Assembly (NCBI GenBank): GCA_033791585.1
Contig: JASJGK010000145.1
Span: 1 to 53,541, forward strand
Direction: 5' to 3'
From: SAR324 cluster bacterium
Lineage (GTDB): Bacteria > SAR324 > XYD2-FULL-50-16
Length of the DNA: 53,541 nt
A program made the translations under genes and the position numbers. The notes under the pieces were generated by a model that worked only from the letters and a program-made list of their open reading frames with translations, ran no database searches and was not told where the DNA came from. Every line of letters begins with the position of its first letter. Position 1 is the stretch's first letter. Shown here one piece after another: positions 5,162 to 51,578 of this stretch.

Positions 5162-5175
5162 GCCTTAAGTTTCAA

Positions 5176-22983: not shown

Positions 22984-23022
22984 AATTATTTAATTAACAT
23001 AGATCACAAGATTTAAGGAGAA

Positions 23023-24210: not shown

Positions 24211-24234
24211 CGGAACAACTGGTTTAAGGAAAAA

Positions 24235-25308: not shown

Positions 25309-25317
25309 GAGAACTAA

Positions 25318-25563: not shown

Positions 25564-25576
25564 ACAGGTATTAGAT

Positions 25577-29537: not shown

Positions 29538-30316
29538 AAAAGGAACGACGAGATTTTATCAAACAGGCAGGCTTTGTAGGTGCTGCTGTTGTGACAGGTG
29601 GCGCTGCTGTTGTTACTAGTGGGATTTTAGCCCCTACTACGGCGAATGCAAGCTCAGGTCACGAGGTCACTGATTCAGACCAACCTCGCTTGGGGATGGT
29701 TATTGATATGACCAAGTGTAAAGAAGAGTGCAACGATTGTAGTGATATTTGCCACTCTGTGCATAATGTTCCAGACCATGGAAATCCTAAAGACGAGATC
29801 AAATGGATCTGGAAAAATGAATATGAAAGGGTCTTTACTGATAAGTCCCACCAATATGTGTCTCAAGACTTAAAACAAAAGCCTTTCCTCACCATGTGTA
29901 ACCACTGTGACGACCCCCCTTGCGTGAAAGTATGCCCCACCAACGCTACCTTTAAACGTAACGATGGCATTGTGCAAATGGACTTTCACCGCTGTATTGG
30001 TTGCCGTTTTTGTATGGCTGGCTGCCCTTATGGTTCCAGATCTTTTAACTGGATTGAGCCGAGACCTGCAATTAAAGAAATCGATTCAAGTTTTCCAACC
30101 CGCGAAAGGGGCGTTGTGGAAAAGTGTAACTTTTGTGCAGAATTAATAGACAAGGGCGAAAAACCTGCCTGTGTCACGACCTGTAAAGAAGGCGCATTGA
30201 TATTCGGTGATTTAAACGATCCCAACTCGGAAATTCGAAAAGTCTTAGAGACAACAAAAACGATCCAACGCAAACCTGGACTCGGCACTAAGCCTAGCGT
30301 CTTTTACGTGGTATAA
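29534..30316 (+). CDS. dsrO: DsrO (Tat-exported FeS ferredoxin subunit)
   Basis: Twin-arginine signal [12 protein letters not shown]. PsrB/NrfC-like Cys clusters ([30 protein letters not shown]...CVTTC). ATGA overlap with dsrJ. Confidence 0.85.
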
Positions 30317-30321
30317 TTACA

Positions 30322-31476
30322 ATGATAGAAAAAGGATTAACAGGCAGTAAAACCTATATGACATGGCTAGGGCTTTTGGGCTCTCTCATGGCAGTGGGTG
30401 CCTATGGTTATAAACAACAACTAGACTATGGTCTAGGGATAACAGGCATGGGCCGTGATATCTCTTGGGGTATCTATGTTGCGCAGTTTACCTTTATGGT
30501 AGGCGTTGCAGCGTCAGCGGTTATGTTGGTTTTACCCTATTACCTCCACAATTTTAAAGCTTTTGCTAAGATTGTAGTTTTAGGTGAATTCCTAGCCGTT
30601 TCAGCTGTGGTTATGTGTATTTTATTTATTTTTGTGGATCTAGGTAAGCCTTCACGAATTTTAAACGTGATGCTTTACCCCACCCCACATTCCATGCTTT
30701 TTTGGGATATGTTGGTGCTCAATGGTTACTTGATTCTCAATACCCTTTGTGGGCGAGTGGTCTTAAAAGCTGAAAGGCAACAGGTTCCACCTCCGAAATG
30801 GATCAAGCCTTTTATTTTGCTTTCTATTCCCTGGGCATTTTCTATCCACACAGTAACTGCATTTTTATTTGCAGGGTTGCCTGGTCGCCACCTTTGGCTT
30901 ACAGCCATCTTGGCACCAAGGTTCTTAGCCTCAGCATTTGCGGCAGGCCCAGCTTTGCTGATTCTGTTAGCCTTGTTAGTGAAAAGAATTGCAGATTTTG
31001 ATGCGGGGAAAGCAGCCTTTGATAAATTGATTACCATCGTAACTTACGGGTCTATTGCGAATTTCTTTTTTATCGGTTTGGAATTCTTTACAGCATACTA
31101 CAGTAACATCCCTAGCCACATGCACAGCTTAGAATATTTATATTTTGGGCTAGATGGTAAAACTGCTTTAGTGCCTTTTATGTGGACCTCCACATTTTTA
31201 GGCCTTGGTGCCATTGGCTTATTCTTATACCCCAAGACACGTGATAACGAGACTTTACTGGCCATTGCCTGTGCTGGCATCTTTATTTCTCTCTGGATAG
31301 ATAAGGGCATTGGCTTAATCATCGGTGGTTTTGTCCCTAATGCGTTTGAAGAAGTGATAGAATATCAGGTTACAGGAGTAGAAATTTCCATTGTTGTGGG
31401 CATTTGGGCCACTGGTATTTTTGTCTTGTCCGTGTTATTCAAGAGTGCAATCGACATTAAAAAAATTCACGAATAG
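30322..31476 (+). CDS. dsrP: DsrP (NrfD/PsrC-like integral membrane quinone-interacting subunit)
   Basis: 384 aa with about 10 TM and an NrfD-like pattern. Last member of the dsrMKJOP order. Confidence 0.85.
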
Positions 31477-34095: not shown

Positions 34096-35865
34096 ATGCC
34101 AGAAATCAACGAGCGCCCTAGCAAAAACTTAAAAATCCTTCTTTCAATCTTTAAGTTTGTACTACCCTACAAACTCAGAGTAACATTCGCAGGCATTGCC
34201 TTGGTCTGTACGGCTGGAATTTCTCTTTCACTGGGCCAGGGAATTAGAATTTTGTTTGATCAGGGATTTGTGGTGGGTACAGAAGAAAGTTTAGGCCAAG
34301 CAATTGGAATTTTATATACCATGGTATTATTGCTAGCCTGTGGAACCTTTATAAGGTTCTATCTCGTTTCTTGGATTGGGGAGCGTGTAACGGCGGATAT
34401 TAGAAATGCTGTTTTTAAGCATGTCATTGAATTGCATCCCAGTTATTTCGAAATTAACAAAAGTAGTGAGATACAATCTCGTATTACAACCGACACTACC
34501 CTGCTACAATCTCTAATTGGAACATCTGTGTCTCTGGCATTGAGAAACACCTTGATGTGTATTGGGGGGATCATTTTTCTTTTTTTCACAAATGCCAAAC
34601 TGACCATGTATGTTATGATTGCCGTTCCATTGGTGATCTTCCCTATTTTATTTTTTGGAAGAAGGGTCCGAAAATTATCAAAAAGCTCCCTCGATGAAAT
34701 TGCTCATGTAGGCTCTTTTGTGGGGGAGTCGCTTCAAAATATTAAAACGGTGCAAGGGTATAATCATCAGGAATTAGATATTCTAAAGTTTTCCGATCAA
34801 GTGGAGCTGGCATTCAAGGTTGCTATAAAAAGAATAAGCCAAAGATCATATATGACGGCAGTTGTGATGCTGCTTGTTTTTAGCGCTATTGTGTTTATGA
34901 TCTGGATGGGGGGAAAAGATGTATTGTCTGGTGGCATAACCCCGGGAGAGCTATTCGCATTCATTTTTTATTCAGTGATTGTAGGTTCCTCGGTAGGGGC
35001 TGTGAGTCAGGTGATAGGCGAATTGCAACGGGCTGCCGGTGCGACAGAAAGGCTAATGGAATTGTTACAGGCCAAAAATCTTATTTTACCTCCTGAGCAA
35101 AACAAGAAGAACTTAGATACGCATATAACAGGGGCAATTGAACTTAAGAATATCAGTTTTGCTTATTCTTCCAGACTAGAGACACCAGCTATTCAGAATT
35201 TAAGTCTATCTGTTGAAGCGGGGAAAAGCTTGGCCTTGGTCGGGCCTTCAGGGGGCGGCAAAACAACGCTTTTTGAATTACTTCTCAGGTTTTACGATGC
35301 GCAGGAAGGGGCCATTCTATTCGATAACATCAATATCAGGGATCTCGATCCAAAAAACTTGAGAAAACACATTGCAATTGTCCCCCAGCAACCTGCATTA
35401 TTCAGTGCAAATGTTTGGGAAAATATTCAATATGGAAATCCCAATGCCTCAAAGGAACAAATTCATGAAGCAGCAAAGGCCGCATATGCCACAGAATTTA
35501 TTGAGCAACTTCCAGAACAATATGACACCTACTTAGGTGAGTCGGGGGTAAGGCTTTCAGGTGGACAAAGGCAACGAATAGCCATCGCAAGGGCCATATT
35601 AAAAAATCCTGAGATACTTCTTTTGGATGAAGCAACCAGCGCATTAGACGCGCAAAGTGAGCAGATGGTACAAATGGCCTTGGATCATTTGATGGTAAAT
35701 AGAACAACCCTAATCATTGCCCACCGCCTGGCAACTGTAAAAAACGTAGACCAAATTGCTGTCATTGAGGCAGGGAATATCGTAGGCTTGGGAACCCACG
35801 AGGAATTAGTTAATAGCTCCCCACTTTATTCAAGGCTAGCAAAACTACAATTTAGAGGTGTTTAG
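34096..35865 (+). CDS. ABC transporter, fused permease/ATPase (ABCB/MsbA-type exporter)
   Basis: Six-TM N-terminal domain. Walker A GPSGGGKTT, signature LSGGQRQR, Walker B LLLDEATSALD, H-loop IIAHRL. Confidence 0.9.
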   Translation: MPEINERPSKNLKILLSIFKFVLPYKLRVTFAGIALVCTAGISLSLGQGIRILFDQGFVVGTEESLGQAIGILYTMVLLLACGTFIRFYLVSWIGERVTADIRNAVFKHVIELHPSYFEINKSSEIQSRITTDTTLLQSLIGTSVSLALRNTLMCIGGIIFLFFTNAKLTMYVMIAVPLVIFPILFFGRRVRKLSKSSLDEIAHVGSFVGESLQNIKTVQGYNHQELDILKFSDQVELAFKVAIKRISQRSYMTAVVMLLVFSAIVFMIWMGGKDVLSGGITPGELFAFIFYSVIVGSSVGAVSQVIGELQRAAGATERLMELLQAKNLILPPEQNKKNLDTHITGAIELKNISFAYSSRLETPAIQNLSLSVEAGKSLALVGPSGGGKTTLFELLLRFYDAQEGAILFDNINIRDLDPKNLRKHIAIVPQQPALFSANVWENIQYGNPNASKEQIHEAAKAAYATEFIEQLPEQYDTYLGESGVRLSGGQRQRIAIARAILKNPEILLLDEATSALDAQSEQMVQMALDHLMVNRTTLIIAHRLATVKNVDQIAVIEAGNIVGLGTHEELVNSSPLYSRLAKLQFRGV

Positions 35866-36141
35866 CCTGAGTTACCTAAAATCACCACTCAGAGCGACTT
35901 GGAAAGGGAAAATACAGAACTAACTACATGGCTGCTGTGATTTATAGGGGGGCGAACTAACTTCCCTCAGCTGGGTAGGTTGGCGCTCTTATGATAGTCA
36001 AGAGCAAAGGATTTGTATTTATTTGAAATACCAAAATTTAGGCTTTAAATTTAAACTAAAAATCAAAACTCAAATTAAGGTAAGTTACTGGTGGGTTTTT
36101 AAATCTAGGATTATGGTCCTTGTGAACGCAAAATATTGAGC

Positions 36142-36171
36142 AAAAAAAAAGAGGCGTGAGCCTCTTTTTTT
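36142..36171. terminator. Bidirectional intrinsic terminator (ABC gene versus soe/dsrEFH operon)
   Basis: Same 6-bp stem AGAGGC/GCCTCT (36150-36155 / 36160-36165) with a GTGA loop, flanked by A9 and T7 runs. Confidence 0.75.
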
Positions 36172-36240
36172 GGGTTTGTTTTAAGAACCAACTACAAATG
36201 ATAAACCACCACCAGATAAAATCCAGTGCTCAAGAAAAGA

Positions 36241-37116
36241 TTACTCTACTTGCGCCTGCATTTTAGCAAGTAAGCCTCTAGTTATTTCCACTTGGTCCAA
36301 CCAAGTTTGGCAGCTAGGCAGTTTGATCGCTTTCAGCTCATCGCTCCATTCCTTGGTTACTTCCTGCAAACCACTCAGCAAAGGGATAGCTTTACTATAA
36401 TCAATGGATGAGAAAATTAAACTAGGTAGGATCTGTGATCGTGTGCCAAAACCAAAGGGAACCTCTAACTGGTTAGCCAACTTTTTTAATCTGAATTGCG
36501 TCAAATAAAAGCCACAAAGCCCAGGGGTCAATAGATATTTCGCAATATCTTTCAAGCCTGTTTCAGGGTTTTCTAAGATCTCTTGCTCTAGCTTGGGCAA
36601 CTCAGGGGGAAAAAGCCCTGGATTTAGCTCTTTATATAGCTTTTGGCTTACATCTAGAAGATGGTTAGCTAAGTGGCTAAAAAAGAAGTTCTCTGTCTGT
36701 TTTAAGGCAATAGCAAAGATCGGTAACCAAGTTAAAACCTGAGAAGATAGAAATTGACCAGCTTCGGCCTTTCGGCCCTCTTTGAGTAGGACAATTAAAT
36801 AGGAAATTTCTGTAGCGATATGGTCAGGGGTGCCTTTTGGGTACCAGTGGCCAGCTCGATAAGCATCGTTAACATGTTCAAAAGCATCGCCGCCCATTTG
36901 ACCCAGTTCATCGAAATAAACTGAGGCATAGGGGGAAACTTCAAGACCAAGAGCCTGATAATGGTCTGCACCAAATTCGTCTCTTGGGTCATCGAATTCT
37001 TGGTATCTTTGATTCCAAGATTCGATTAGGGGGGAAGAGTCGAAATTTTCGGGAATTCGACCCTCTAAAAGTTCTGCAATAATGCAAAGTTCTTGCAACA
37101 TATTATTAGCGACCAA
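36241..37116 (-). CDS. TorD/NarJ-like molybdoenzyme chaperone domain protein with an extra C-terminal region
   Basis: The N-terminal ~140 aa have the TorD-family pattern, including PDHIATEISYLIVLL. 11-bp overlap with the upstream molybdoenzyme gene. C-terminal ~150 aa unassigned. Confidence 0.5.
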   Translation of the reverse strand: MVANNMLQELCIIAELLEGRIPENFDSSPLIESWNQRYQEFDDPRDEFGADHYQALGLEVSPYASVYFDELGQMGGDAFEHVNDAYRAGHWYPKGTPDHIATEISYLIVLLKEGRKAEAGQFLSSQVLTWLPIFAIALKQTENFFFSHLANHLLDVSQKLYKELNPGLFPPELPKLEQEILENPETGLKDIAKYLLTPGLCGFYLTQFRLKKLANQLEVPFGFGTRSQILPSLIFSSIDYSKAIPLLSGLQEVTKEWSDELKAIKLPSCQTWLDQVEITRGLLAKMQAQVE

Positions 37117-40057
37117 ATGGCTTTTCAGGAAGTACGTAGGCTTCTTTCGTTGGCTTCAATGGTCTATTATACCACATTGGCCGTCTTGTGCCATCGGGGC
37201 TATGATCGACAGCAGAACGAGTTTTAGCAACCCACTTCTGATATACTTCCATGGACTTGTTGGTGTCAACCCAAACATCTCCATAAGAATCTGTTGCCTC
37301 GGCTTTTTTTACATTAAGCGCTTTTTGGTGCCAGCAATGGGCGCCACTGACTGGGTCAGGCTGAGCTGCGTGAGTTAGATTTTGGTTTACACCAACATCT
37401 TCCCACCAAACTCGACTGGTGTCAGGGTCCCAAGACTTCCAAGGTTTACCCATTTGTTTGATTTTAAGGGTGCACTCACCGTTTTCTTTTTCTTCAATAT
37501 CAACAACCGAAGCCATACCTGAGCCAATTCCTTGGCCAGTTGCGGCTGTTCCACTGGTCTTCCAGCGGCCGAGGTGGTGAGAACAGGCAACAACACCAGG
37601 CTTAATGCCTTCTGTCACAAATGCCTTATCTACAAAGTAACCAATCTCGGTTTCTACCCTTACGAGTTCACCAGCGGCAACGCCAATTCTTTTTGCGTCA
37701 CTAGGGTGAATCCAAAGTGGATTGTTGTGGCTAATTTCATATAACCACTTACAGTTTGCACTTCTGGTGTGAATCAAAGTTGGCAGACGGAAGTTAGGTA
37801 GGAGAATCATCTCCCCCTTTTCTCGGTCTATGTGGCTTTGGTGCACGTGGGATTCTAGTTGCCAAGGAATAGTGTATTCCTTTTCAGGCCAGCCCCAGTC
37901 TTTCATAGTAGCACTGAAAAATTCTAACTTCTTTGACGGAGTATTGAACCCAACTGTTGCTACACCTTCAACCATGTTGCCTTTGACAACGCCTTTTTCA
38001 TCAACAGCTCTACCAGCTGCATCAGCATTGTATTTACCAACTAACTCAGCGGCAAAAGGCTGGTAATGATCTTTTTTCACTTCATAAACTGCATACCTGC
38101 GCATGTACTCTAAAGGAGTCAAACCTTCTTCTTTCGCCTTTTCAGGAAGCCCTGGTACAGAGTTTTCAAAAATCCACTGCCAGTACTCATTTTGAGTAAT
38201 GATTTCGCCTTCACGATAAGGGCTCATGAAGTGTTTTTTGATTCCTAAAGCACCGTCTTCATCCATTTTCACAGATAAGGCTGTCCAGAATTCTGCTTCT
38301 TCCCAGACTTCACCTGGGTTAGACTCATAGGTGTATTTAATATCAATGCCAGCTTTTTCCATGGCCACTCTACGTACAGGTTGCCTAAAAGCAATCCACT
38401 GGCCAGCGTGAGTCTCTTGACTCATTAAATCATGCCGTTCGCCTGCGTGGCCCATTGGAAGAATATAATCGGCATACCATGCTGACTCGTTCCAAGTAGG
38501 GGTTAAGGCAACGTGGCACTTCATTTTTTCTTCGTCTTGCAGAGCCTTCATCCACATAAACCCATCCGGGTTAATCCAAAGTGGGTTGTAGACACGAGTG
38601 AAGTAAACATCAATCTCGCCTCTGCCTTCTTCTAAGAAGTGAGGAAGTAAAAAGCTCATTTCATAAAATGACATTGGCCATTCATGGGGCATGTGCAATT
38701 CATTCCAAGTATCTGTGTGTGGCGGTTCGTCAAAAGGCTTAGGAACAAATTTGTTCCAACTATTGCCACTAACTCCACCTTTGTTGCCAACAGAACCAGT
38801 CAATACATTTAAAAAGAACAGGGTTCTTGCTACTTGCCAGCCACCTAAGTGAGCCATAGAAGCGGCACGCCATACGTGTGTGGAAAGTTTGCCTTCGGCT
38901 TCGCTTACGGCTATAGCCATATTCTCTAAAATCTTCGCATCAATCTGGCATTCTTTGGCAGCCATCTCAAAATTAAAGGGAGCATAGGTCGCTTTTAAAA
39001 ACTTATCAAAGGTATCATAGTCTTCTAGTAATTTCGCATCAGCGGCAATTGCCTGCTGTAGCGCTTTTAGGTCGGGAGTGTTTGCCAACTCGTTACTAGT
39101 TGAAAATTCTTTTAAAGTATCGGCCCAGTTAACCCAGTTCTTTACAAATTCTTTATCGTAAAGATCATTTTCCAGTAAATAATTGGCAATAGATAGGATC
39201 ATGGTCGGCTCACTACCTGGCCAAACTGGCGCCCAAATATCTGACTTGGATGCTGTGTTTGAAAGGCGAGGGTCAACTGTAATCAACTTGGCACCCTTCA
39301 TTTTAGCTTCAATAATTCGCTGGGCATGAGGGTTAAAATAATGACCTGTTTCTAAGTGCGAAGAAATCAATAAAATTGTCTTAGCATTAGAATAGTCGGG
39401 GCTTGGTCGATCAAAACCAGACCACTGGAAATAACCAGATCTGGCTGCAGCCGAGCAAATATTTGTGTGACTGTTGTGAGAATCCGTTCCCCAAGCCTTA
39501 ATGACTCGGTTGGTGTAATGATCTTCGCCAGGGCGACCAACATGGTAGCAAATGCCATCTTTTCGCTTCTTGCGACTTGCGGCCATTTTTTCACCGATTT
39601 CAGCTAAAGCTTCGTCCCAAGTGATGCGCTTCCATTTACCTTCACCACGTTTACCAACTCTTTTTAGAGGGTGCATGATGCGTTCTGGATCATAAATCTG
39701 GTTGTGGGTAGCTGGCCCTTTGGCGCAGTTACGGCCACGTGAACCTGGGTGCACGGGGTTTCCTTCAAATTTTCTGATCTCAAAATTTTGCTTATCTACA
39801 TAGGCTAATAAACCACAGGCAGACTCACAGTTAAAACAAACGGTAGGCACTAGCTGGTAATTTTTAGCAACTTGCTTGGGCCATGATTTAGCGTCCCATT
39901 CTGTCCAGTCATCCCAATGCTCACAGGGTGGGTGGCTGGTCATACGACCATCACCATGACGAATATGATTTAACTCTAAAGGTTTTTTATCGGAATCCAC
40001 AAAAGAGGGGACACCGTAAGCATGACCTGATGTTAGGTTTTCGTGTTTCTTGTCCAT
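37106..40057 (-). CDS. soeA: Cytoplasmic molybdopterin (bis-MGD) oxidoreductase catalytic subunit, SoeA-like (candidate sulfite:quinone oxidoreductase)
   Basis: 983 aa. N-terminal [4Fe-4S] motif CFNCESACGLL...GRNCAKG. Complex iron-sulfur molybdoenzyme (DMSO reductase family) fold. No RR/Tat signal in the first 60 aa. The size (~110 kDa) and missing signal match SoeA. High confidence for the Mo-oxidoreductase call, moderate for Soe. Confidence 0.65.
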   Translation of the reverse strand: MDKKHENLTSGHAYGVPSFVDSDKKPLELNHIRHGDGRMTSHPPCEHWDDWTEWDAKSWPKQVAKNYQLVPTVCFNCESACGLLAYVDKQNFEIRKFEGNPVHPGSRGRNCAKGPATHNQIYDPERIMHPLKRVGKRGEGKWKRITWDEALAEIGEKMAASRKKRKDGICYHVGRPGEDHYTNRVIKAWGTDSHNSHTNICSAAARSGYFQWSGFDRPSPDYSNAKTILLISSHLETGHYFNPHAQRIIEAKMKGAKLITVDPRLSNTASKSDIWAPVWPGSEPTMILSIANYLLENDLYDKEFVKNWVNWADTLKEFSTSNELANTPDLKALQQAIAADAKLLEDYDTFDKFLKATYAPFNFEMAAKECQIDAKILENMAIAVSEAEGKLSTHVWRAASMAHLGGWQVARTLFFLNVLTGSVGNKGGVSGNSWNKFVPKPFDEPPHTDTWNELHMPHEWPMSFYEMSFLLPHFLEEGRGEIDVYFTRVYNPLWINPDGFMWMKALQDEEKMKCHVALTPTWNESAWYADYILPMGHAGERHDLMSQETHAGQWIAFRQPVRRVAMEKAGIDIKYTYESNPGEVWEEAEFWTALSVKMDEDGALGIKKHFMSPYREGEIITQNEYWQWIFENSVPGLPEKAKEEGLTPLEYMRRYAVYEVKKDHYQPFAAELVGKYNADAAGRAVDEKGVVKGNMVEGVATVGFNTPSKKLEFFSATMKDWGWPEKEYTIPWQLESHVHQSHIDREKGEMILLPNFRLPTLIHTRSANCKWLYEISHNNPLWIHPSDAKRIGVAAGELVRVETEIGYFVDKAFVTEGIKPGVVACSHHLGRWKTSGTAATGQGIGSGMASVVDIEEKENGECTLKIKQMGKPWKSWDPDTSRVWWEDVGVNQNLTHAAQPDPVSGAHCWHQKALNVKKAEATDSYGDVWVDTNKSMEVYQKWVAKTRSAVDHSPDGTRRPMWYNRPLKPTKEAYVLPEKPFGR

Positions 40058-40063
40058 GGTGAT

Positions 40064-41611
40064 TTAACTGTTAGGAATATGTTGTGGAGCCATCACGAAG
40101 ATATGCTCATAAATATAAAGACCAACTAGAGCGAGCAATGCGCCAAGTGAAGGTTGCTTCAAGCCGATTAAAACGATGGGTAGAATATTACCAGCCAAGA
40201 TTGCACCACCCCAAAATAAATTCTTATATTTACCGTGGGTGATAGAATGAGCAGCAGCTTTCGCAGTGTCAGAAGCGTGATTCACGCCGAACTCACCAAG
40301 TAAAATCATCAGTAAATTGATCACAATCGCTATACTAAATCCGTGAAAAGCCATCTGTACAAAGTCAGGCTCGATTGGGGTAAATTCACCTAAAATCACC
40401 ACAAATGCACTTCCTGCCATCATAGCTTGAGTGAAGAAATGAAAAGGTAACAATGGGCTTTGCCAGAAGTCTCTACCCTCTGCCTGAGCAAAGAGATAAG
40501 CTGTGTAGATAGCAGCACCAATTGCAAGGGGGAAACCACCTAAGAAGGCAACTTCTCTGATAAGACCTAAATCCATGTCGATTAATCCTAGCAACACCGC
40601 AGTTTCAGCGGCCCACCAAGCACCTGTTAAGGTACTAAAGGAAATGAGGATGTAAGCACCACGAACCAGCCAAGATTTCCATTGTGGCTGGAATACAACC
40701 CTTAAAAATCTTTCAGGTTTCTCTAAATCCCAAACTAAAAAGACGGTTGTGAGTAGTGTAAAAGCAACAACGGCACCGCCAGCAATTACATTTGTCATTG
40801 AGTCAAGGTTAGCCATTCCGTAAATGAAGGCCATAGCCATCAACATAAAGATACCTGTGGCAATGCCCTTGGTAACTAAATAGGCTGGTACTTGCCAATG
40901 CCATGGTATGCTGTGTCTCGTGTTATAAGTTGTTTGGCACATTTGAGAACCGTCACCCATGTATAGAGTGGGGTTTTCATCGACATGTTGGTCCATGTTA
41001 GTTTCGCTTACATCAGACCATAAAAATTGTTTTGATGTACTCATGGTAACAGTTGGTGTCAAAGCAGCTTGGTGACCATCAATGTAAAATACCTTAGGTG
41101 ATGTACCCTGTTCTGGTTTTCTTACAGTCACGTTATTAGCGGCGATTGTTGTGGATATTTCTGAAGTTGGGTCGTCGATATCACCAGCAATAATTGCATG
41201 GGTAGGACAAATAACCGCACAAGCAGGCTCCATTCCACGGTCAACGCGGTGGGCACAATAGTGACACTTCTGAGCGGTTCCCGTTTCAGGGTCGATATAG
41301 ATAGAGTTATAAGGGCAGGCCTGCATACAGGACTTACAACCAATACATTGGTCAGAATTATAACCAACGATACCATCATCTCTTTGGGTCATTGCTGAAA
41401 CGGGGCAGATTTCAACACAAGGTGGGTTTGCACACTGATTACAGCGATTCACTTGGAAGTTTCTTCTCACATTGGGGAAATTTCCTACTTCCGTATATTT
41501 TACCCAAGTACGAAAGACCCCTAAAGGGACTTGGTTTTCACTTTTGCATGCAGTTGAGCAAGCATGACAACCAATACACTTTCGGTTGTCAATGACAAAG
41601 CCGTAATTCAT
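40064..41611 (-). CDS. Fusion of a four-cluster FeS subunit (SoeB/PsrB-like) with an NrfD-type membrane anchor (SoeC/PsrC-like)
   Basis: Residues 1-~200 carry CIGCHACSTAC, CNQCANPPCVEICP, CIGCKSCMQACP, CHYC...CAVICP. Residues ~235-515 are about 8 TM, NrfD-like. No signal peptide. 6 bp upstream of the Mo subunit gene. Confidence 0.7.
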   Translation of the reverse strand: MNYGFVIDNRKCIGCHACSTACKSENQVPLGVFRTWVKYTEVGNFPNVRRNFQVNRCNQCANPPCVEICPVSAMTQRDDGIVGYNSDQCIGCKSCMQACPYNSIYIDPETGTAQKCHYCAHRVDRGMEPACAVICPTHAIIAGDIDDPTSEISTTIAANNVTVRKPEQGTSPKVFYIDGHQAALTPTVTMSTSKQFLWSDVSETNMDQHVDENPTLYMGDGSQMCQTTYNTRHSIPWHWQVPAYLVTKGIATGIFMLMAMAFIYGMANLDSMTNVIAGGAVVAFTLLTTVFLVWDLEKPERFLRVVFQPQWKSWLVRGAYILISFSTLTGAWWAAETAVLLGLIDMDLGLIREVAFLGGFPLAIGAAIYTAYLFAQAEGRDFWQSPLLPFHFFTQAMMAGSAFVVILGEFTPIEPDFVQMAFHGFSIAIVINLLMILLGEFGVNHASDTAKAAAHSITHGKYKNLFWGGAILAGNILPIVLIGLKQPSLGALLALVGLYIYEHIFVMAPQHIPNS

Positions 41612-41747
41612 TGTTTCCTCTTATTTATCCCAAAGGATTTAGATTCTTTAAAGCTTGGAAAAGCTTTAAGGTTGTTTTAAAATCTTTAAATTTGTTTGAT
41701 TTTCTGCCGACTTTAAGTAAAAGAAGGCAGAAAGTTTCGGCGGTGGT

Positions 41748-41984
41748 CTATTTGCTCTGAATCCAATAAGTGAAAATTTCACCATCATCTTCAGATTTTA
41801 AAATAGGGTTTCCTGTTCGTTCAGACCAACTAGGCATATCCTTGATAGAACCCTTGTCGGTACAAACCATTCTTAGGACTTGACCCGTGGTTAATCCATC
41901 AACAGCTTTTTTAGTTTTCAAAACAGGTAGTGGGCAGCTAAGACCTTTGCAGTCTAGCTCTAGATCTACTTTAATATCATTCAT
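41748..41984 (-). CDS. tusA: TusA-family sulfur carrier
   Basis: 78 aa with DCKGLSCPLPVLKTKKA (the CPxP active-site motif). Confidence 0.85.
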   Translation of the reverse strand: MNDIKVDLELDCKGLSCPLPVLKTKKAVDGLTTGQVLRMVCTDKGSIKDMPSWSERTGNPILKSEDDGEIFTYWIQSK

Positions 41985-42008
41985 GTTCAGTTCCTTTAAT
42001 GTTAAATT

Positions 42009-42518
42009 TTAGGTAAAAAGTTGAATATCTGAATCAGCAGCGAAATCTAAAAAGTTCGCAGCACCAGCATAGTTGACTCCTTCAACAAAGTCTTCCTTTT
42101 CATAACCAAAAACGTCCATGGTCATGGTACAGGCGATCATTTCGACTCCGATATCTATACAAAGGTCACGTAATTCTGGTACAGAAGCTACACCTTTGTT
42201 CTTAAAAGTTTTCTTCATCAAGCTAGTTGAGAAAGACTCAAATCCTGGTACGTTACCCATCAAAGCATTAGGTATAGGCCAGTTGATGTTTTGAAACCAC
42301 TTTGGCCCAAAAGGCATCTTCATAGGCATAGCTGGGTTAGCTTGTGGGGCAATTATTCCTTCATAGTCTGTTCTTAAAACATCAAGACCGTAAAAGGTAT
42401 AAAAAATCTTTACTTCCATATCCATGGCTGCGGCGGCACTACCTAATATTAAAGGTGGGTAAGCCCAATCCAAGGTTCCTTGTGTTGCAATTAAAGCAAC
42501 TTTTTTTTGTCCAGACAT
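42009..42518 (-). CDS. DsrE-family sulfurtransferase (DsrE3/COG2210-like)
   Basis: 169 aa. The N-terminal VALIATQGTLDWAYPPLILG and MIACTMTMDVFG Cys motifs are typical of the soluble DsrE3-type proteins that pair with TusA. Confidence 0.65.
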   Translation of the reverse strand: MSGQKKVALIATQGTLDWAYPPLILGSAAAAMDMEVKIFYTFYGLDVLRTDYEGIIAPQANPAMPMKMPFGPKWFQNINWPIPNALMGNVPGFESFSTSLMKKTFKNKGVASVPELRDLCIDIGVEMIACTMTMDVFGYEKEDFVEGVNYAGAANFLDFAADSDIQLFT

Positions 42519-42552
42519 CGTTTCTCCCTAAAAAAACGGTTAAGTAACTAAT

Positions 42553-42846
42553 TTAAAGCCAAGAATTGACTTGATGCTTTTCTGCAAGTTCAACAAAACC
42601 AGCATAGTCGATAACTTTGACTTGATCACAAAGAACACTAATGCCCCTTGCCTTTAAGTCTGAACTTAAAGCGTAAAAGTCATTGGTTGCGGAGTGTTGA
42701 GCTAATTGACCTGAAACTTTACTTGAACATTGCGCAGCATATACACCATCTTCAATAAGTAAAATTGGGTCGCCTTCTTGTGCAAACTTAAGACAAGTGT
42801 CGAAGCTGTCTGCTGAAAAAGGGCTTTTATTAATTGTGTGTAACAT
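42553..42846 (-). CDS. dsrH: DsrH
   Basis: 97 aa. MLHTINKSPF start typical of DsrH/TusB, with a Cys at position 18 (DsrH-type). Third gene of the E-F-H order. Confidence 0.75.
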   Translation of the reverse strand: MLHTINKSPFSADSFDTCLKFAQEGDPILLIEDGVYAAQCSSKVSGQLAQHSATNDFYALSSDLKARGISVLCDQVKVIDYAGFVELAEKHQVNSWL

Positions 42847-42860
42847 ATTGGACCTTCCGA

Positions 42861-43229
42861 TTAATGATGAATTAGAACATCTTGCACAGCCATCAGCTTG
42901 CCAATGGCATCAGCTTCAAGAACCTGAACAGGAATAAAAAGATCTTCGACTTTTAGCCCACGATCTTCTAATGATTGCCTATCAACATAGATGTCTTCTA
43001 CGTCATAATCTTCTAAAACTCCAAGAGTTTTCATAAAGCCTTTGATCTGCAGCTCAGTTGTATCTTGGTCTTTCTTTAGAGAAAATATACCATCACCAAT
43101 AAAGGCCATGCTTATTTCTTGGTCATATGCGGCCATGATTAGAACCATTTCTAAACCTTCGTAGGTGTAGATTGTGCCGTGAGGTGCGGTTCTAACAATG
43201 TGCATCATTTTTTTTACGTTGTCATCCAT
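42861..43229 (-). CDS. dsrF: DsrF
   Basis: 122 aa with a DsrE/F fold and no active-site Cys, lying between dsrE and dsrH. Confidence 0.75.
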   Translation of the reverse strand: MDDNVKKMMHIVRTAPHGTIYTYEGLEMVLIMAAYDQEISMAFIGDGIFSLKKDQDTTELQIKGFMKTLGVLEDYDVEDIYVDRQSLEDRGLKVEDLFIPVQVLEADAIGKLMAVQDVLIHH

Positions 43230-43234
43230 CTACT

Positions 43235-43591
43235 TTAAGCTCCAAATGTAACTAAGCGGTCAACATCAATAGCGATATCGGTCAATTCACCGAGACCTGT
43301 GATTTCAGAGTGATCAGTCAAAAGACTATCTTCGATCCCTCTACGCTTACTTGCAGCGATGCAAGATAGGATTCTAACGCCTTTAGCGCCTAATTCAGAC
43401 CAACGGTTAGCTATATGCCTGTCGTCTTGAGGTGGGTCCATGAGTTTAGTGACGTTAATGACCCCGTCATTGTATAAAAATACAGAAGTTAAGGTGTGGC
43501 CTTTTTCCATCACTGCTTTCGCAAAGTGATACGCTGTGTCAGCTGCTTCGTGGTTATAAGGTCCTTCTTTTAATAAAATTGCAAATTTCAT
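43235..43591 (-). CDS. dsrE: DsrE
   Basis: 118 aa. MKFAILLKEGPY start, and an active-site Cys in ILSCIAASKRRG at the expected position (~Cys78). Confidence 0.8.
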   Translation of the reverse strand: MKFAILLKEGPYNHEAADTAYHFAKAVMEKGHTLTSVFLYNDGVINVTKLMDPPQDDRHIANRWSELGAKGVRILSCIAASKRRGIEDSLLTDHSEITGLGELTDIAIDVDRLVTFGA

Positions 43592-43653
43592 TGCCCCTTT
43601 TATAATATGAAGTTAAAAGAATATATAGATATGCTAAAAAACATATATGGTGG

Positions 43654-43682
43654 ATAATTGCACTTTGAACCGAGCGATGTCA
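43654..43682 (-). promoter_or_regulatory. Candidate sigma70 promoter for the dsrEFH-tusA-soe operon (TTGACA-N17-AATTAT on the minus strand)
   Basis: -35 is the reverse complement of 43677-43682 and -10 is the reverse complement of 43654-43659. About 60 nt upstream of the dsrE ATG. Confidence 0.35.
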
Positions 43683-43778
43683 AACCTTTTTATGTTGTTT
43701 TTTTACCATGTTAGGATTATTTTATAAGTCCTTGATAAAAAGGAACTTAAATATGCATATATATTACTATAATTTACT

Positions 43779-44054
43779 ATGAAAGAAAAGTTAAAAGCTT
43801 GGTTTGTCGAAAATGAAGACAGACTTGAAGAGTTAAAAGACTCAGACGCAGCCGCTCAATTCGGGCAAATTGAATTAGCAGAGTTTAAAAAACTCAAGGC
43901 CGAAATCATTATTGAAATGGTGATGGAAAATGTAACAGATATGCCAGATTTGAATTTTCACGCCCAGAAAAACCTATTTCCCTACCCTAGCTCCGAGCAA
44001 TTGCAGACAGCGAGGGAAAGGTTGGGTTTAGGTCGTGCTAAAATGAAGCACTAA
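43779..44054 (+). CDS. Hypothetical protein (91 aa), divergent from dsrE
   Basis: ORF with a charged helical composition. No family recognised. Confidence 0.4.
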   Translation: MKEKLKAWFVENEDRLEELKDSDAAAQFGQIELAEFKKLKAEIIIEMVMENVTDMPDLNFHAQKNLFPYPSSEQLQTARERLGLGRAKMKH

Positions 44055-44060
44055 CTACCT

Positions 44061-44344
44061 TAAAATATTTCGGTAGCCTTGCGGCACTAAATGCGCCTTT
44101 AGTGGCGTAAGCCTAACAACATATTTTAGAGAAAGCGCCCCAGGCAATCGAAGGTTAGAGAGACTTCTAAAGCAAGGTCAGCCTTTAGTAATATTGCTAG
44201 ACGCTTCAATGGCGACGCCTATCCTTAGCTTTAGGTTTTTCCTAAGACTGGGCTACTTATTTTGAGTATCCTTTCTTCTCCTTCTTAGTTAGTGGAAGCC
44301 TGCGGCGCTTCTCTAAAATATTTCGGTAGCCTGACGGCACTAAA
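44061..44344. repeat. Composite repeat structure: 31-bp direct repeat plus 18/19-nt inverted repeat
   Basis: Direct repeat: TAAAATATTTCGGTAGCCTTGCGGCACTAAA (44061-44091) versus TAAAATATTTCGGTAGCCTGACGGCACTAAA (44314-44344). Inverted repeat: ATATTTTAGAGAAAGCGCC (44121-44139) versus GGCGCTTCTCTAAAATAT (44304-44321). AGCCT(T)G(C/A)CGGC(A/G)C occurs three times. Confidence 0.85.
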
Positions 44345-44546
44345 GGCTGTCTATCCCCAGGGCTTTTCTTTGGGAAAAACTTAGAGCATATATTAAGGTG
44401 AAAACTCCAATTACATTTCCTTACACTAAAAGATTCTTTTTTACAGTTAGGTTTGACGGTGGATAATCAATATGTATATATTGAAATATTAAAGAGATAA
44501 TTATTCAGCCGAAGATCAGAATTCTATTTTTCAAGAGGGAAAGCCT

Positions 44547-46265
44547 GTGGGATCATTTTTACCAAAAAATTATACTTTTAACAGTTTTCAAGCTGATCTC
44601 CTGTCAGGTATTACCGTCGGAATTATCGCACTTCCCTTGGCAATGGCCTTGGCTATCGCCAGCGGGGTTCCCCCTGAACACGGACTCTATACCTCTATCT
44701 TTGCAGGGATTGTTATTGCGCTTACAGGTGGCTCTAAATTTAATGTTTCAGGCCCCACAGCCGCTTTTGTTGTCGTTTTATTGCCCATTAGCCAAAAGTT
44801 TGGCTTAGCAGGGTTGCTGACGGCGACCTTAATTGCAGGTTTGATTCTCATTTTTTTAGGTGCCGCAAAACTAGGTGGTGTGATTCGCCTTATCCCTTAC
44901 CCTGTGATTATTGGCTTTACCAGCGGGATCGGAATTGTAATCGCTGGGCTTCAAATTAAAGATTTTTTAGGTATTGAAGGGATAAACCGAGGTGGGTTTG
45001 TCAGTACAATAACCCAAATTTCCTCCTCACTAGATAGAATAAATTGGCTTGATACCAGTGTAGGTGTCGTCACTCTAGCAGTGTTATTGCTCTTCCCAAA
45101 ATTAAAACTTAAAATTCCCTCACATTTAGTCGCTGTTTTAGTAGGAACTTTGTTTGCTTATTTCCTGGTCCCAATGGGCTTTGGGGAACACGTTAAAACA
45201 ATCGGAAGCGAATTTCATTATGTAATTGATGGGGTTTCTGGTAACGGGATACCCCCTGTCCTACCTAAATTTGCCTTACCGTGGAACTGGGTTGACCCTA
45301 GCGGGAAAACGTTGGTCTGGTCGGTGCAGCTTTTTAAAGAATTATTCATGGCTGGTTTTGCCATAGCAATGTTAGGGGCTATTGAGTCTTTGCTTTGTGC
45401 GGTTGTCGCCGATGGTATGACTGGAACAAAACATAATTCCAATAAAGAATTGATTGGGCAGGGATTAGGTAACCTAGTTGCTCCCTTTTTTGGAGGCATC
45501 CCCGCAACAGCGGCATTAGCCCGAACAGCGGCAAATATACGAGCAGGTGGAAATTCTTCGGTTTCTTCCATTGTTCATGGTGTCTTTTTGCTTTTGTCTT
45601 TGGTCTTTATTGGCAAATGGTTAGCCTTTATCCCTATGGCAACCTTGGCGGCATTACTTTTTATTGTTGCTTGGAATATGGCAGAGGTAAAACACTTTAT
45701 TCGGATTGTAAAAATTGCCCCTAGGAGCGACGTTGCCGTTTTGTTAGCTTGTGTCAGCCTTACGGTTTTGGTAGATATGGTTGCAGCTGTTACTGTGGGT
45801 ATCGTTTTAGCATCTGTCCTGTTTATTCGTAGAATGTTTGAACTGACAGGGAATCAATTATCCCAAGAATACCAACCCAATGAAACTGATTTTGAAGGTG
45901 CTGAAGGTGTAGTCGTTTATGAAATTAAAGGATCTTTGTTTTTTGGGGCTGCCCAAAAAGCAATCAGCACGCTAGGGGAGATTCAAAATAAATTTCATAC
46001 ATTAATTTTAGAACTAACCCGTGTTGAAATGATCGATATGACGGGTATTGTAGCCTTAGAATCTGTATTAGCAGACCTTAGAAAAGCTAAGATAAAAGTG
46101 ATCATTTGTGGGCCTAGCCCGCAAGTTAAAGAAAGGTTTGAAGCTGCAGGAATCGTCTCTAATGCAGGGACGCTCTGTATTGTTAGTTCGATAGAACATG
46201 GGCTTGATTTAGTTGAATCTAGATCATTAGAAGCCAGTTCAGTTGAATTAGAACCAAATACCTAA
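44547..46265 (+). CDS. SulP-family anion (sulfate) permease with C-terminal STAS domain
   Basis: GTG start with SD GAGGGA. Multi-TM SLC26/SulP core (AIESLLCAVVADG, IGQGLGNLVAPFFGGIPATAALARTA). STAS domain (VVYEIKGSLFFGAA). Confidence 0.9.
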   Translation: MGSFLPKNYTFNSFQADLLSGITVGIIALPLAMALAIASGVPPEHGLYTSIFAGIVIALTGGSKFNVSGPTAAFVVVLLPISQKFGLAGLLTATLIAGLILIFLGAAKLGGVIRLIPYPVIIGFTSGIGIVIAGLQIKDFLGIEGINRGGFVSTITQISSSLDRINWLDTSVGVVTLAVLLLFPKLKLKIPSHLVAVLVGTLFAYFLVPMGFGEHVKTIGSEFHYVIDGVSGNGIPPVLPKFALPWNWVDPSGKTLVWSVQLFKELFMAGFAIAMLGAIESLLCAVVADGMTGTKHNSNKELIGQGLGNLVAPFFGGIPATAALARTAANIRAGGNSSVSSIVHGVFLLLSLVFIGKWLAFIPMATLAALLFIVAWNMAEVKHFIRIVKIAPRSDVAVLLACVSLTVLVDMVAAVTVGIVLASVLFIRRMFELTGNQLSQEYQPNETDFEGAEGVVVYEIKGSLFFGAAQKAISTLGEIQNKFHTLILELTRVEMIDMTGIVALESVLADLRKAKIKVIICGPSPQVKERFEAAGIVSNAGTLCIVSSIEHGLDLVESRSLEASSVELEPNT

Positions 46266-46330: not shown

Positions 46331-48064
46331 ATGAAGATGTTAAAAAAACTATTTCCCTTTCTAGCTTGGGGCCCTTTGATGGACAGACACACCATCGGCG
46401 CTGATTTTATTGCTGGTATCACCGTTGCTTTAGTGTTGATTCCACAATCTATGGCCTATGCCCAGTTGGCGGGGTTGCCCCCCATATACGGGCTTTATGC
46501 GGCCTTAATGCCTGGGTTAATAGGCGTGCTTTGGGGCTCATCTTACCATTTAGGCACAGGGCCTGTGGCCATGACTTCTCTACTGACTATGACGACGTTA
46601 TTGCCCTTTGCTAACGGAGACGTTAATTTTGTTGGTTCAGAAAGATATATTGGCTTGGCTATTTTGTTGGCCTTTATTGTCGGTGTCGTGCGGCTTTTAG
46701 TAGGGGTCTTTAAATTGACCTTCTTTATTAATTTTTTATCCCAACCCGTTGTTAGGGGGTTTATCAACGCTGGGGCATTGATCATTGCATCCTCGCAGGT
46801 AGGTAAAATTTTTGGCGTCAAAATGCACAAAAGCGATGTCTACATTGCCGATATTTGGGATTTATTGTTACGCCTCCCCTCTGAGATCCACTTACCCACC
46901 CTAATCATCGGTGGTACTTCGTTGGTGCTATTGTGGGGTTTGAAAAAGTATACACCTAAAATCCCCTCTGCTCTTGTGGTAGTGGCATTAGGCTCGCTTG
47001 CTGTCTGGTTTCTTAACCTTGCTGACCCTAGATTAATAAATGCCGATTTTGTTGGGTTTGTTGCTGCTGACCAGAAATTTGTGAATGTTATTGGGATTAT
47101 ACCTGCAGGCTTGCCTGCTTTTCAAGCACCCATGTTTGATTTTGCTTTAATTCTGCAAATTCTCCCTGGGGCTTTTGCTGTGATGTTCATTGGTTTTATG
47201 GAGGTGACTTCAGTCACAAAGGCCATATCACCCAAATCAAAACAAAAAGTAAATCTCGACCAAGAATTGATTGGCCAAGGCCTATCAGCCATTGCAGGGA
47301 GTTTTTCTAGTTGCTACCCAACCAGTGGTAGCTTTTCCAGAACAGCATTGAACTTTTCTTCTGGTGGTAAAACTGGTTTATCTGGGGTTTTTGTAGCTCT
47401 TTTTGTTTTACTTTCCCTGTTGTTTTTAACCCCTCTCTTGATCTTTTTACCAGATGCGGTTTTGGCGGCGATCATTATTATGGCGGTAATTGGGCTAATT
47501 GACTTTAAGGCCTTTAAGCAAGCTTGGCGAGTTCATGTTTATGACGGTATTAGTGGTATCGTTACCTTTTGTGCAGCCATACTCTTTGCTCCAAATATCG
47601 TGAATGGTATTGTAATTGGTGGCTTACTAGCTTTAGCGCTACATCTATTTCGTACTATGAGCCCAAGGGTAGTGATTAAAAGCGGATTGGAAAGTGATCT
47701 GGCCCTAGAAAATGACTCACAATACCCAAATAGTTCGGCTAAGTTCCCTACGATGGAATTTGAAGGAAGAATATACTTTGCCAATACACAGCATTTCGAA
47801 AATGCAGTTCTCACCATCTTAGACCGCTTTCCCAATACGGAAAAAGTAGTGGTTTTGGCTAATGGAATTGGTGGGATTGATGCTTCTGGTGATTTGGTTC
47901 TACGTGAGCTAATCGAAACCTTACGGGGTCTGGGCAAGGATTTTATTTTTATTGGAGTCCGACCACAGGTGCAAGAAATTTTAGTTCGAGCCGACCTTTG
48001 GGACCTAATTGGCGATGAAAATTTCTTTACTGATACAGGTGCTTTTCAAGCAACCTTAAAGTAG
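46331..48064 (+). CDS. Second SulP-family anion permease with STAS domain
   Basis: SulP core (QSMAYAQLAGLPPIYGLY, ELIGQGLSAIAGSFSSCYPTSGSFSRTA). C-terminal STAS (FEGRIYFANTQHF). A divergent paralogue of the preceding gene. Confidence 0.9.
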   Translation: MKMLKKLFPFLAWGPLMDRHTIGADFIAGITVALVLIPQSMAYAQLAGLPPIYGLYAALMPGLIGVLWGSSYHLGTGPVAMTSLLTMTTLLPFANGDVNFVGSERYIGLAILLAFIVGVVRLLVGVFKLTFFINFLSQPVVRGFINAGALIIASSQVGKIFGVKMHKSDVYIADIWDLLLRLPSEIHLPTLIIGGTSLVLLWGLKKYTPKIPSALVVVALGSLAVWFLNLADPRLINADFVGFVAADQKFVNVIGIIPAGLPAFQAPMFDFALILQILPGAFAVMFIGFMEVTSVTKAISPKSKQKVNLDQELIGQGLSAIAGSFSSCYPTSGSFSRTALNFSSGGKTGLSGVFVALFVLLSLLFLTPLLIFLPDAVLAAIIIMAVIGLIDFKAFKQAWRVHVYDGISGIVTFCAAILFAPNIVNGIVIGGLLALALHLFRTMSPRVVIKSGLESDLALENDSQYPNSSAKFPTMEFEGRIYFANTQHFENAVLTILDRFPNTEKVVVLANGIGGIDASGDLVLRELIETLRGLGKDFIFIGVRPQVQEILVRADLWDLIGDENFFTDTGAFQATLK

Positions 48065-50650: not shown

Positions 50651-50654
50651 TATT

Positions 50655-51575: not shown

Positions 51576-51578
51576 AAG

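Follow-up and report, generated by a model that had tools for sequence, protein, structure and literature searches.

We analyzed a stretch of 53,541 nucleotides (nt) from a SAR324 cluster bacterium (contig JASJGK010000145.1 of assembly GCA_033791585.1; hereafter, the window), in which genes for cytoplasmic sulfur carriers adjoin the genes of a molybdenum (Mo) enzyme. Eight co-directional open reading frames (ORFs) occupy positions 36241-43591 of the minus strand, and the ORF calls agree with the initial annotation, which had been made without database searches, on their number, direction, and coordinates, Pfam and NCBIfam supporting the gene assignments (Table 1). Five of the genes, namely dsrE, dsrF, dsrH, a gene for a further DsrE-family carrier, and tusA, make up a relay module, and the other 3, encoding a fused iron-sulfur (FeS) and membrane subunit (BC), the Mo catalytic subunit, and a TorD-like chaperone, make up an enzyme module. 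The cluster is real, and it joins a cytoplasmic sulfur-carrier relay to a probable inward-facing, sulfite-oxidizing Mo enzyme.

Table 1. Features of the eight-gene cluster and of its surroundings in the window (aa, amino acids; bisPGD, bis(pyranopterin guanine dinucleotide)).
Feature	Coordinates	Strand	Evidence and remarks
dsrE (DsrE/TusD)	43235-43591	-	TIGR03012, 114.6 bits (cut-off 89.25); Pfam DsrE
dsrF, 122 aa (DsrF/TusC)	42861-43229	-	TIGR03010, 124.1 bits (cut-off 94.15)
dsrH, 97 aa (DsrH/TusB)	42553-42846	-	TIGR03011, 109.2 bits (cut-off 49.2); Pfam DsrH
Predicted DsrE2-type sulfur carrier, 169 aa	42009-42518	-	Pfam DrsE_2, E = 1.7e-47
tusA, 78 aa	41748-41984	-	Pfam TusA, 76.6 bits; Cys-Pro-x-Pro motif (LSCPLP)
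Spacer between tusA and the BC gene, 136 nt	41612-41747	-	Two stem-loops
Fused FeS-membrane subunit (BC), 515 aa	40064-41611	-	Pfam Fer4_11 and NrfD
Mo-bisPGD catalytic subunit, 983 aa	37106-40057	-	Pfam Molybdop_Fe4S4, Molybdopterin, and Molydop_binding
TorD/NarJ-like chaperone, 291 aa (TTG start)	36241-37116	-	Pfam Nitrate_red_del, 33.8 bits (cut-off 22.2)
Hairpin 3' of the TorD-like gene	36144-36171		Symmetrical GC stem, A-run and T-run at the flanks; probable terminator
Sigma-70-like promoter candidate 5' of dsrE	43654-43683	-	TTGACA, 18 nt, AATTAT, TG extension; consensus match only
dsrC, dsrA, dsrB, IscA-like, dsrT (RsbRD_N), dsrM, K, J, O, P	22648-31476	+	NCBIfam, Pfam
Two tandem SulP/STAS permeases	44547-46265 and 46331-48064	+	Pfam Sulfate_transp and STAS; divergent from dsrE
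Sirohaem synthase, CysG-type (DsrAB cofactor)	48445-49857	-	
TauE/SafE sulfite-exporter-family protein	17185-17991	+	

DsrE, DsrF, and DsrH all exceed the NCBIfam equivalog cut-offs of the TusD-, TusC-, and TusB-type models, and the DsrE translation contains a Cys within RILSCIAASKRRG. The next carrier had been called DsrE3-like; it matches instead the DsrE2 model NF047629 (SulfCarrDsrE2), scoring 195.1 bits, under the cut-off of 210, and its orthologue on the related contig L001 (71% identical) reaches 219.9 bits, over that cut-off, so that the protein is best assigned to the DsrE2 rather than the DsrE3 type. From dsrE to the Mo gene, the gaps measure 5, 14, 34, 24, 136, and 6 bp. The overlap of 11 bp described between the TorD-like and Mo genes exists only if the TTG at 37116 is the start codon; with the alternative ATG at 37101, the chaperone would have 286 aa and a 4-bp gap would separate the genes, and it is the ATG equivalent to 37101 that is called as the start on a near-identical, independent contig from ENA (L095; 91-94% protein identity). 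The hairpin beyond the TorD-like gene is a probable bidirectional terminator, closing both the eight-gene cluster and a convergent ABC-transporter gene. An Rfam search of positions 35800-44600 gave no credible match, including none to a Moco riboswitch, and a tRNA search of the window found none.

The initial description of the Mo subunit as a protein with an N-terminal C-x2-C-x3-C...C motif and no twin-arginine translocation (Tat) signal was borne out. The FS0 motif reads C74-x2-C77-x3-C81...C111, with all 4 Cys invariant in the family, and is preceded by a hydrophilic extension of 73 residues carrying the family motif HPDGR..YPP.E.WDDW.EWD. The cryptic Tat signal that had been named as evidence to the contrary is absent: the window protein and 120 homologues alike have neither a Tat consensus nor a hydrophobic N-terminal region, and the maximum N-terminal hydropathy is 0.32. 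Cys201 is likewise invariant in the family and aligns with Cys173 of PsrA, which we take to be the Mo ligand of that enzyme, making Cys201 the putative Mo ligand here. The relatives listed in homologue searches are at least 65% identical and generically named, and a search of representative proteins, in which the matches were mostly fragments and metagenomic proteins, yielded one main cluster (60% identical to the window protein) and a few distant clusters without Tat signals. Tat-bearing sister clusters (P0245, P0266, P0279, and P0399) are 34-44% identical to the window protein, and the characterized three-subunit enzymes would be expected either inside the main 50% cluster or beyond approximately 33% identity. 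All relatives without a Tat signal that could be placed in their gene context, down to 40% identity, have a fused BC gene; the others come from frameshifted long-read assemblies. Plasmid matches at 31-39% identity were set aside as different enzymes or damaged genes, the Azoarcus KH32C plasmid enzyme being encoded by unfused B, C, and A genes and bearing a Tat signal, and the Sulfurovum plasmid match having its A gene broken over 2 reading frames. A scan of viral contigs turned up no relative.

The BC protein proved to be organized as first described, with 4 ferredoxin-type Cys clusters joined to an NrfD-like anchor of about 8 transmembrane (TM) helices. A PsrB/SoeB-like four-cluster ferredoxin domain (residues ~1-180) opens at residue 1 with the first cluster motif, without a signal peptide, and is followed by a flexible linker (residues ~181-239) and by a PsrC/NrfD-like, quinone-interacting domain of 8 TM helices (residues 240-509). 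The 16 Cys of the 4 ferredoxin motifs are all invariant in the family. The 8 helices, mapped by sequence, were reproduced in an AlphaFold2 model with predicted local distance difference test (pLDDT) scores above 90; the FeS domain has pLDDT below 50 in this model, which is thus uninformative about domain docking. In a Foldseek search with the model, the FeS half matched PsrB (42% identity) and the membrane half PsrC (TM-score 0.75).

In the characterized Soe, Psr, Phs, and Ttr enzymes, B and C are separate polypeptides, as the initial annotation had said, and a search of open-access papers found none stating a SoeB-SoeC fusion. The fusion itself had been regarded as an unfamiliar architecture, a view that did not survive comparison. 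The best 120 homologues of the BC protein are all 513-593 aa long and all contain Fer4_11 and NrfD, the closest being the 516-aa orthologue on L095 (91% identity). Among 85 related loci from more than 10 phyla, in which neighbors were called as non-overlapping ORFs, 65 have a full-length fused ORF immediately upstream of the Mo gene, and the remainder are contig ends or frameshifted assemblies; in most of the 85, a single tblastn segment upstream of the Mo gene spans the entire 515 aa. Even the 2 most distant relatives without a Tat signal that could be placed in context, at approximately 40% identity (P0244 on L091 and P0249 on L094), have a fused partner. The B-C fusion is therefore real, and it is how members of a large, strongly conserved family are normally built. 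An artefact of assembly or frameshifting, with 2 genes joined falsely, might be suspected from the broken frames in a few related long-read loci (L024, L064, L092, and L096) and from the different, overlapping frames of B and C in L013, a Caldilineae metagenome-assembled genome (MAG); it is effectively refuted by the uniform length and domain content of the 120 homologues, by the unbroken tblastn segments, and by the independent orthologue on L095. The L013 arrangement (positions 6878-8672, ORFs of 290 and 382 aa) reflects either a genuine split within the fused family or a frameshift from assembly. In P0244 and P0249, the putative Mo-ligand Cys is replaced by Asp or by a gap, and these proteins may have a different chemistry or may have lost the cofactor.

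The topology prediction proposed as a check on the fusion protein placed its N-terminus inside. Averaged over 121 family sequences, loops 2, 4, and 6 of the anchor carry 9.3 Lys and Arg residues, versus 1.3 in loops 1, 3, 5, and 7, and it is because of these positive even-numbered loops, together with the absence of export signals, that we assign the N-terminus, and with it the FeS domain, to the cytoplasm. The termini of PsrC both lie on the P-side, and SoeC is regarded as inverted (PMC8076601); judged by its predicted N-in topology, the anchor of the BC protein is inverted relative to PsrC, as proposed for SoeC. The initial annotation had credited the fusion with keeping the FeS domain on the cytoplasmic side of the membrane. 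That side is determined instead by the missing export signals and the positive-inside topology of the NrfD domain, and the fusion cannot decide it, because an FeS module always docks where the N-terminus of the anchor emerges.

To chart the family, genomes were scanned with an alignment of Mo subunits as the query, which gave at least 600 matching rows. The Mo subunits of the best 80 loci are 53-67% identical to that of the window and belong to Rhodothermales, Caldilineae, Ardenticatenaceae, Myxococcota (including the cultured Enhygromyxa salina), Saprospiraceae, Acidobacteriota, Thermomicrobiales, Ktedonobacterales, Gemmatimonadota, Planctomycetota, KSB1, and Binatia; Chloroflexota and Thermomicrobia also appear among the phyla under which the matches were grouped. 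In the 85 related loci, the Mo gene was called in 78 and a TorD-like gene 3' of it in 25. The most frequent further neighbors are a protein combining a metallo-beta-lactamase (MBL) fold with a rhodanese domain, of the persulfide dioxygenase (PDO) type (19 loci), and SulP/STAS permeases (18), followed by Sulf_transp proteins (6 and 5 loci), a lipoate-protein ligase belonging to the sHdr/LbpA system (5 loci; sHdr, heterodisulfide reductase-like and sulfur-oxidizing), an SQR-like flavoprotein (5), rhodaneses (4 and 3), and MobA (3).

Individual loci illustrate these associations. In Chloroherpeton thalassium (class Chlorobia), the fused-BC/Mo/TorD set lies directly downstream of an sHdr/LbpA cluster, and an sHdr/LbpA/lipoate-ligase cluster stands beside the Mo enzyme there and in 4 Chloroflexota loci. 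On a Myxococcota UBA796 contig, a PDO-rhodanese gene and 2 Sulf_transp genes precede the fused-BC/Mo set; in Thermomicrobium roseum, a CsoR/CstR-like regulator does so. Plasmid pRHL3 of Rhodococcus jostii RHA1 carries a DsrE2-like/TusA/BC/Mo/Mrp operon, flanked by MBL-fold hydrolases, DUF202 proteins, and ArsR regulators, and again has the PDO-rhodanese context. Reverse dissimilatory sulfite reductase (rDsr), sHdr, and PDO release sulfite in the cytoplasm. The recurrent neighbors thus make sulfite or plausibly export sulfate, which supports a sulfite-oxidizing role, and this gene context is, in our view, the strongest evidence for the function of the enzyme.

Among known systems, the closest counterpart is SoeABC of Allochromatium vinosum and Aquifex aeolicus, a cytoplasm-facing sulfite:quinone oxidoreductase with an inverted SoeC (PMC8076601); soe accompanies dsr and shdr in all isolate genomes analyzed (PMC6397845). 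The window enzyme resembles it in its signal-less cytoplasmic Mo-bisPGD subunit with an N-terminal [4Fe-4S] motif, its four-cluster FeS module, its inverted NrfD-type anchor of 8 TM helices, and its co-occurrence with rDsr or sHdr (here, dsrCAB-T-MKJOP in the window and sHdr/LbpA in Chloroherpeton). It differs in that SoeABC consists of 3 polypeptides, whereas B and C form one ORF in the window, and in its gene order, BC-A-TorD rather than what is presumably soeA-soeB-soeC in A. vinosum. The PSRLC3 complex of green sulfur bacteria is encoded by 2 genes and has been proposed to oxidize sulfite in the cytoplasm (PMC5473276, PMC6338057, PMC9324843). It can be likened to the window enzyme by description, both having a PsrA-like subunit and one second subunit for the FeS and membrane parts. 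Frigaard and Bryant are said to have described the second PSRLC3 gene, in 2008, as a B-C fusion, and we know of no biochemical characterization of PSRLC3. The Chloroherpeton thalassium proteins are 68% (Mo subunit) and 51% (BC subunit) identical to those of the window; a search with the Chloroherpeton protein gave, as its best 120 relatives, proteins of Chloroflexota and other groups, with no Chlorobiaceae among the matches listed. Alternative complex III offers a parallel of another kind: its ActB is likewise part of a complex of the iron-sulfur molybdoenzyme family with 2 fused modules and occurs in many of the same phyla (PMC6303296). ActB faces the periplasm and combines its FeS domain with a cofactor-less Mo-like domain, whereas in the window it is the membrane anchor to which the FeS domain is joined, and the FS0 and ligand cysteines are retained in the Mo subunit.

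We therefore propose that the enzyme is probably a two-polypeptide sulfite:quinone oxidoreductase of the Soe/PSRLC3 type that faces the cytoplasm, in line with the initial annotation, which had seen it as cytoplasm-facing and Soe-like; the absence of a Tat signal, the predicted N-in topology, and the sulfite-producing neighbors all point this way. The assignment is based on architecture and gene context, with characterized SoeA compared by description, and our claim is accordingly that the enzyme would work like SoeABC, not that it is SoeABC. In the proposed pathway, the DsrE-DsrF-DsrH-DsrE2-TusA relay would pass sulfane sulfur as a persulfide to DsrC, which would present it to rDsrAB, encoded 4.3 kb away. 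The sulfite released by rDsrAB would most likely be oxidized to sulfate by the Mo enzyme, with FS0 and then four [4Fe-4S] clusters relaying electrons to the inverted NrfD domain and its quinone site, and the adjacent SulP permeases would export the sulfate. We infer sulfite as the substrate and quinone as the acceptor from this setting. The relay consists of the same protein families as the Rhd-TusA-DsrE2/DsrEFH-DsrC relay of A. vinosum, including a DsrC with both Cys (PMC11094781), and differs from it in that dsrEFH lies outside the dsrAB operon, joined to dsrE2-tusA and the Mo enzyme.

Taken as a whole, the account of a relay with a Soe-like enzyme, brought together by an inversion and probably read as a single transcript (see below), strikes us as rather likely, and several points weigh against it. 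No biochemically characterized member of the fused family was found in the literature, and most family members are aerobic heterotrophs without dsr or shdr genes nearby. In a KEGG-based survey, SoeC was confined to Proteobacteria, a few Clostridia, and Aquificae (PMC8076601), so that either KEGG orthology assignment misses the fused proteins or these form a lineage of their own. Reductases, PsrA and PhsA, supply both the nearest solved structure and the best partial matches in NCBIfam, and the 136-nt spacer with its stable hairpins could hold a terminator or promoter missed by simple scans. Finally, a DsrE2-TusA pair of sulfane carriers recurs beside the enzyme in several phyla, and an enzyme acting on free sulfite would have no obvious need of such a pair.

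This last point invites the alternative that the Mo enzyme oxidizes, at the membrane, sulfur bound to a carrier (a persulfide or thiosulfonate on TusA or DsrE2) rather than free sulfite, in which case DsrE2-TusA would be its dedicated substrate-delivery pair. DsrE2-type and tusA genes stand directly beside the fused-BC/Mo genes in the window, in L001-L005, and in L095, and elsewhere on pRHL3, in 2 Caldilineales MAGs, in a Gemmatimonadota MAG, and in a Thermomicrobium MAG; the pairing thus extends over at least 5 unrelated lineages, from the Lambdaproteobacteria-like one to Actinomycetota, Chloroflexota, Gemmatimonadota, and Thermomicrobia. Homologues of DsrE3A and TusA are able to bear a thiosulfonate, and no function is known for DsrE2 (PMC11094781). 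If sulfur were indeed oxidized on a carrier, the reaction would be of a type not described for Mo-bisPGD enzymes and would supply the missing function of DsrE2. Yet outside the lineage of the window the pairing is found in just ~7 of the 85 loci, and the DsrE2-like proteins of Rhodococcus and Caldilineales fall far under the NF047629 cut-off. Moreover, tusA-dsrE2 pairs are already known to feed rDsr and sHdr (PMC11094781; bioRxiv 10.1101/2024.06.14.599071), which accounts for them with no part played by the Mo enzyme. We consider oxidation of carrier-bound sulfur unlikely.

The reductase similarities raise a further alternative, namely a cytoplasm-facing enzyme of the Psr, Phs, or Sre kind that uses quinol to reduce sulfane sulfur, polysulfide, or thiosulfate supplied by TusA or DsrE2. 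A search of the PDB with the Mo subunit found no close relative, and the nearest solved structure is PsrA of Thermus (E = 1e-40), with which the window protein shares the position of the Cys ligand; PhsA is the best partial NCBIfam match, and sulfane carriers are encoded next door. The PsrA alignment, however, is limited to ~250 N-terminal residues, and no NCBIfam equivalog reaches its cut-off with the Mo subunit (score versus cut-off: PhsA, 220 versus 694; DmsA/YnfE, 177 versus 778; ArrA, 119 versus 1600; TtrA, 105 versus 1750), with no SoeA model among the matches. Thermus thermophilus PsrABC (PDB 2VPW-2VPZ) is the nearest solved structure for each part of the enzyme, but it is a Tat-exported, periplasmic reductase of 3 chains with the PsrC termini on the P-side, and the characterized enzymes of these reductase families face the periplasm and have Tat signals (PMC8076601). 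In addition, the recurrent neighbors are sulfite producers (PDO, rDsr, and sHdr) and sulfate permeases, mostly in aerobic heterotrophs. A reductive role thus appears quite improbable, and a Soe-like oxidation of sulfite remains the reading that we prefer.

Because the fusion is normal for a very widespread family, the window provides a useful example and not a new kind of system, and the pairing of tusA-dsrE2 with dsr genes was already known (PMC11094781; bioRxiv 10.1101/2024.06.14.599071). What the comparison offers is a well-supported working annotation for a great many gene pairs that currently go by no more than "molybdopterin-dependent oxidoreductase" and "4Fe-4S dicluster domain-containing protein": each pair would encode a probable sulfite:quinone oxidoreductase of 2 subunits that faces the cytoplasm. 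Given the spread of the fused family over phyla of which none was counted in the KEGG-based SoeC survey (PMC8076601), cytoplasmic sulfite oxidation may be much commoner among aerobic heterotrophs than current annotation suggests.

The 2 modules had been proposed to form a single operon. In the nearest relatives (~70-75% identical), which comprise one MAG contig and several contigs encoding the BC protein of 'Candidatus Lambdaproteobacteria' RIFOXYD1, the relay and enzyme modules are adjacent and divergent, approximately 390 bp apart, and the five-gene relay module of the window is inverted relative to them. In L001 and L002, the BC gene is preceded by a TTGACA box together with an AT-rich motif (...TATGTATATTCAAATATC). 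Both are missing from the tusA-BC spacer of the window, which aligns to those contigs at the ribosome-binding site alone. On the independent contig L095, the genes follow exactly the co-directional order of the window. From this synteny, the single-direction layout is best explained as a recent, lineage-specific inversion of the relay module, which would have put both modules in one direction while the former promoter region of the enzyme genes was lost. Co-transcription as such is plausible, and the qualification to the operon proposal is that the layout is recent and the modules are divergent in the nearest relatives. As an event joining 2 divergent transcription units, the inversion would be a small example of modular pathway assembly.

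The hairpin that had been noted between tusA and the BC gene is present at 41701-41733, with arms TTTCTGCC/GGCAGAAA, and a second stem-loop lies in the same spacer, whose predicted folding is more stable than that of shuffled sequences (z = -3.68). L095 has retained both hairpins; the outer stem is identical there, and the loops have diverged. Because no U-tract follows either of them, the hairpins do not qualify as canonical terminators. On the coding (minus) strand inside the spacer, no terminator-like site was scored, and no promoter-like one in a scan limited to the sigma-70 consensus. Matches to a 17-nt conserved spacer word in a metagenome scan (118 loci) were dismissed as chance, since no relative is encoded at any of them. 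We infer that the 8 genes are probably transcribed from the dsrE promoter as one transcript, given the short gaps, the promoter-like site only 5' of dsrE, the terminator-like hairpin 3' of the TorD-like gene, the loss of the L001/L002 promoter motifs from the spacer, and the same gene order in L095; the 2 conserved stem-loops may then adjust the relative mRNA levels of the 2 halves, as a processing or stability element. Alternatively, the modules may be separate units, the dsrE transcript stopping or being attenuated at the hairpins and the enzyme genes using an unrecognized promoter within the spacer. The spacer is at least 4 times as long as any other gap in the cluster, its stable hairpins and the last ~45 nt before the BC start codon (almost identical between the window and L095) are conserved, and the modules of the nearest relatives have separate, divergent promoters. 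Set against these features are the missing U-tracts, the lack of a scored minus-strand site, and the absence of the TTGACA box and AT-rich motif, so that 2 independent units seem doubtful, if by no means negligible, and we favor the single transcript.

An AT-rich motif, CATATCTATATATTC, lies at 43619-43633 (minus strand), between the promoter candidate and the dsrE start codon, and a second, ATATGTATATATTGAAATAT, at 44468-44487 (plus strand), upstream of the first SulP gene; related motifs precede both divergent modules in L001/L002, at ~9860-9930. The motif may be a shared operator. As a bare pattern with 3 mismatches allowed, it has 11 matches versus 6.4 expected, which is not above chance.

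The surroundings of the cluster are rich in genes for the same pathway, and the window is a compact sulfur-oxidation island comprising rDsr, the relay, the Soe-like enzyme, sulfate permeases, and sirohaem synthase. The dsr cluster is supported by NCBIfam matches to dsrA (554 bits), dsrB (494), DsrM (470), DsrK (719), DsrJ (149), and DsrO (307), with DsrP matched as NrfD and dsrT as RsbRD_N, and its DsrC has both conserved C-terminal Cys. Positions 22648-31476 contain no dsrEFH, dsrL, or dsrD, and neither a rhodanese gene nor dsrL was found among the annotated ORFs of the window. As had been claimed, dsrEFH sits outside the dsrAB cluster and adjoins the Mo enzyme genes; the further claim that the relay is linked to the enzyme rather than to dsrAB stands insofar as the relay is off the dsrAB transcript, and needs amending insofar as all of these genes share one locus, the dsr cluster ending only 4.3 kb before the eight-gene cluster. 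The tandem SulP/STAS permeases are candidate sulfate exporters for the pathway, a dedicated exporter being suggested by the recurrence of this family beside the Mo enzyme in the related loci. In L002, genes for CysG, TauE, and a CbiA/DsrN-like amidase are found close to the relay module.

Several smaller features were recorded in the window and its relatives. On the 150-kb contig L001, positions 1-7368 encode a second, three-subunit Psr-like Mo enzyme preceding the relay module, as well as 2 Sulf_transp genes, a multi-rhodanese protein, and an SQR-like flavoprotein with a PF07849 partner, all absent from the window. A putative gene at 43779-44054 (plus strand), divergent from dsrE, encodes 91 aa with no Pfam match. 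The 490-bp intergenic region 5' of the first SulP gene holds a 34-nt direct repeat (91% identical) at 44061-44094, 44095-44133, and 44314-44347, in which an adjacent inverted copy creates a long palindrome; it resembles a repetitive extragenic palindromic element or a miniature inverted-repeat transposable element. At 50009-52940 (plus strand), genes for a CMD-Rieske fusion protein, a MoxR-like AAA ATPase, and a VWA/CoxE-like protein stand in that order, a trio that looks like an enzyme-maturation set.

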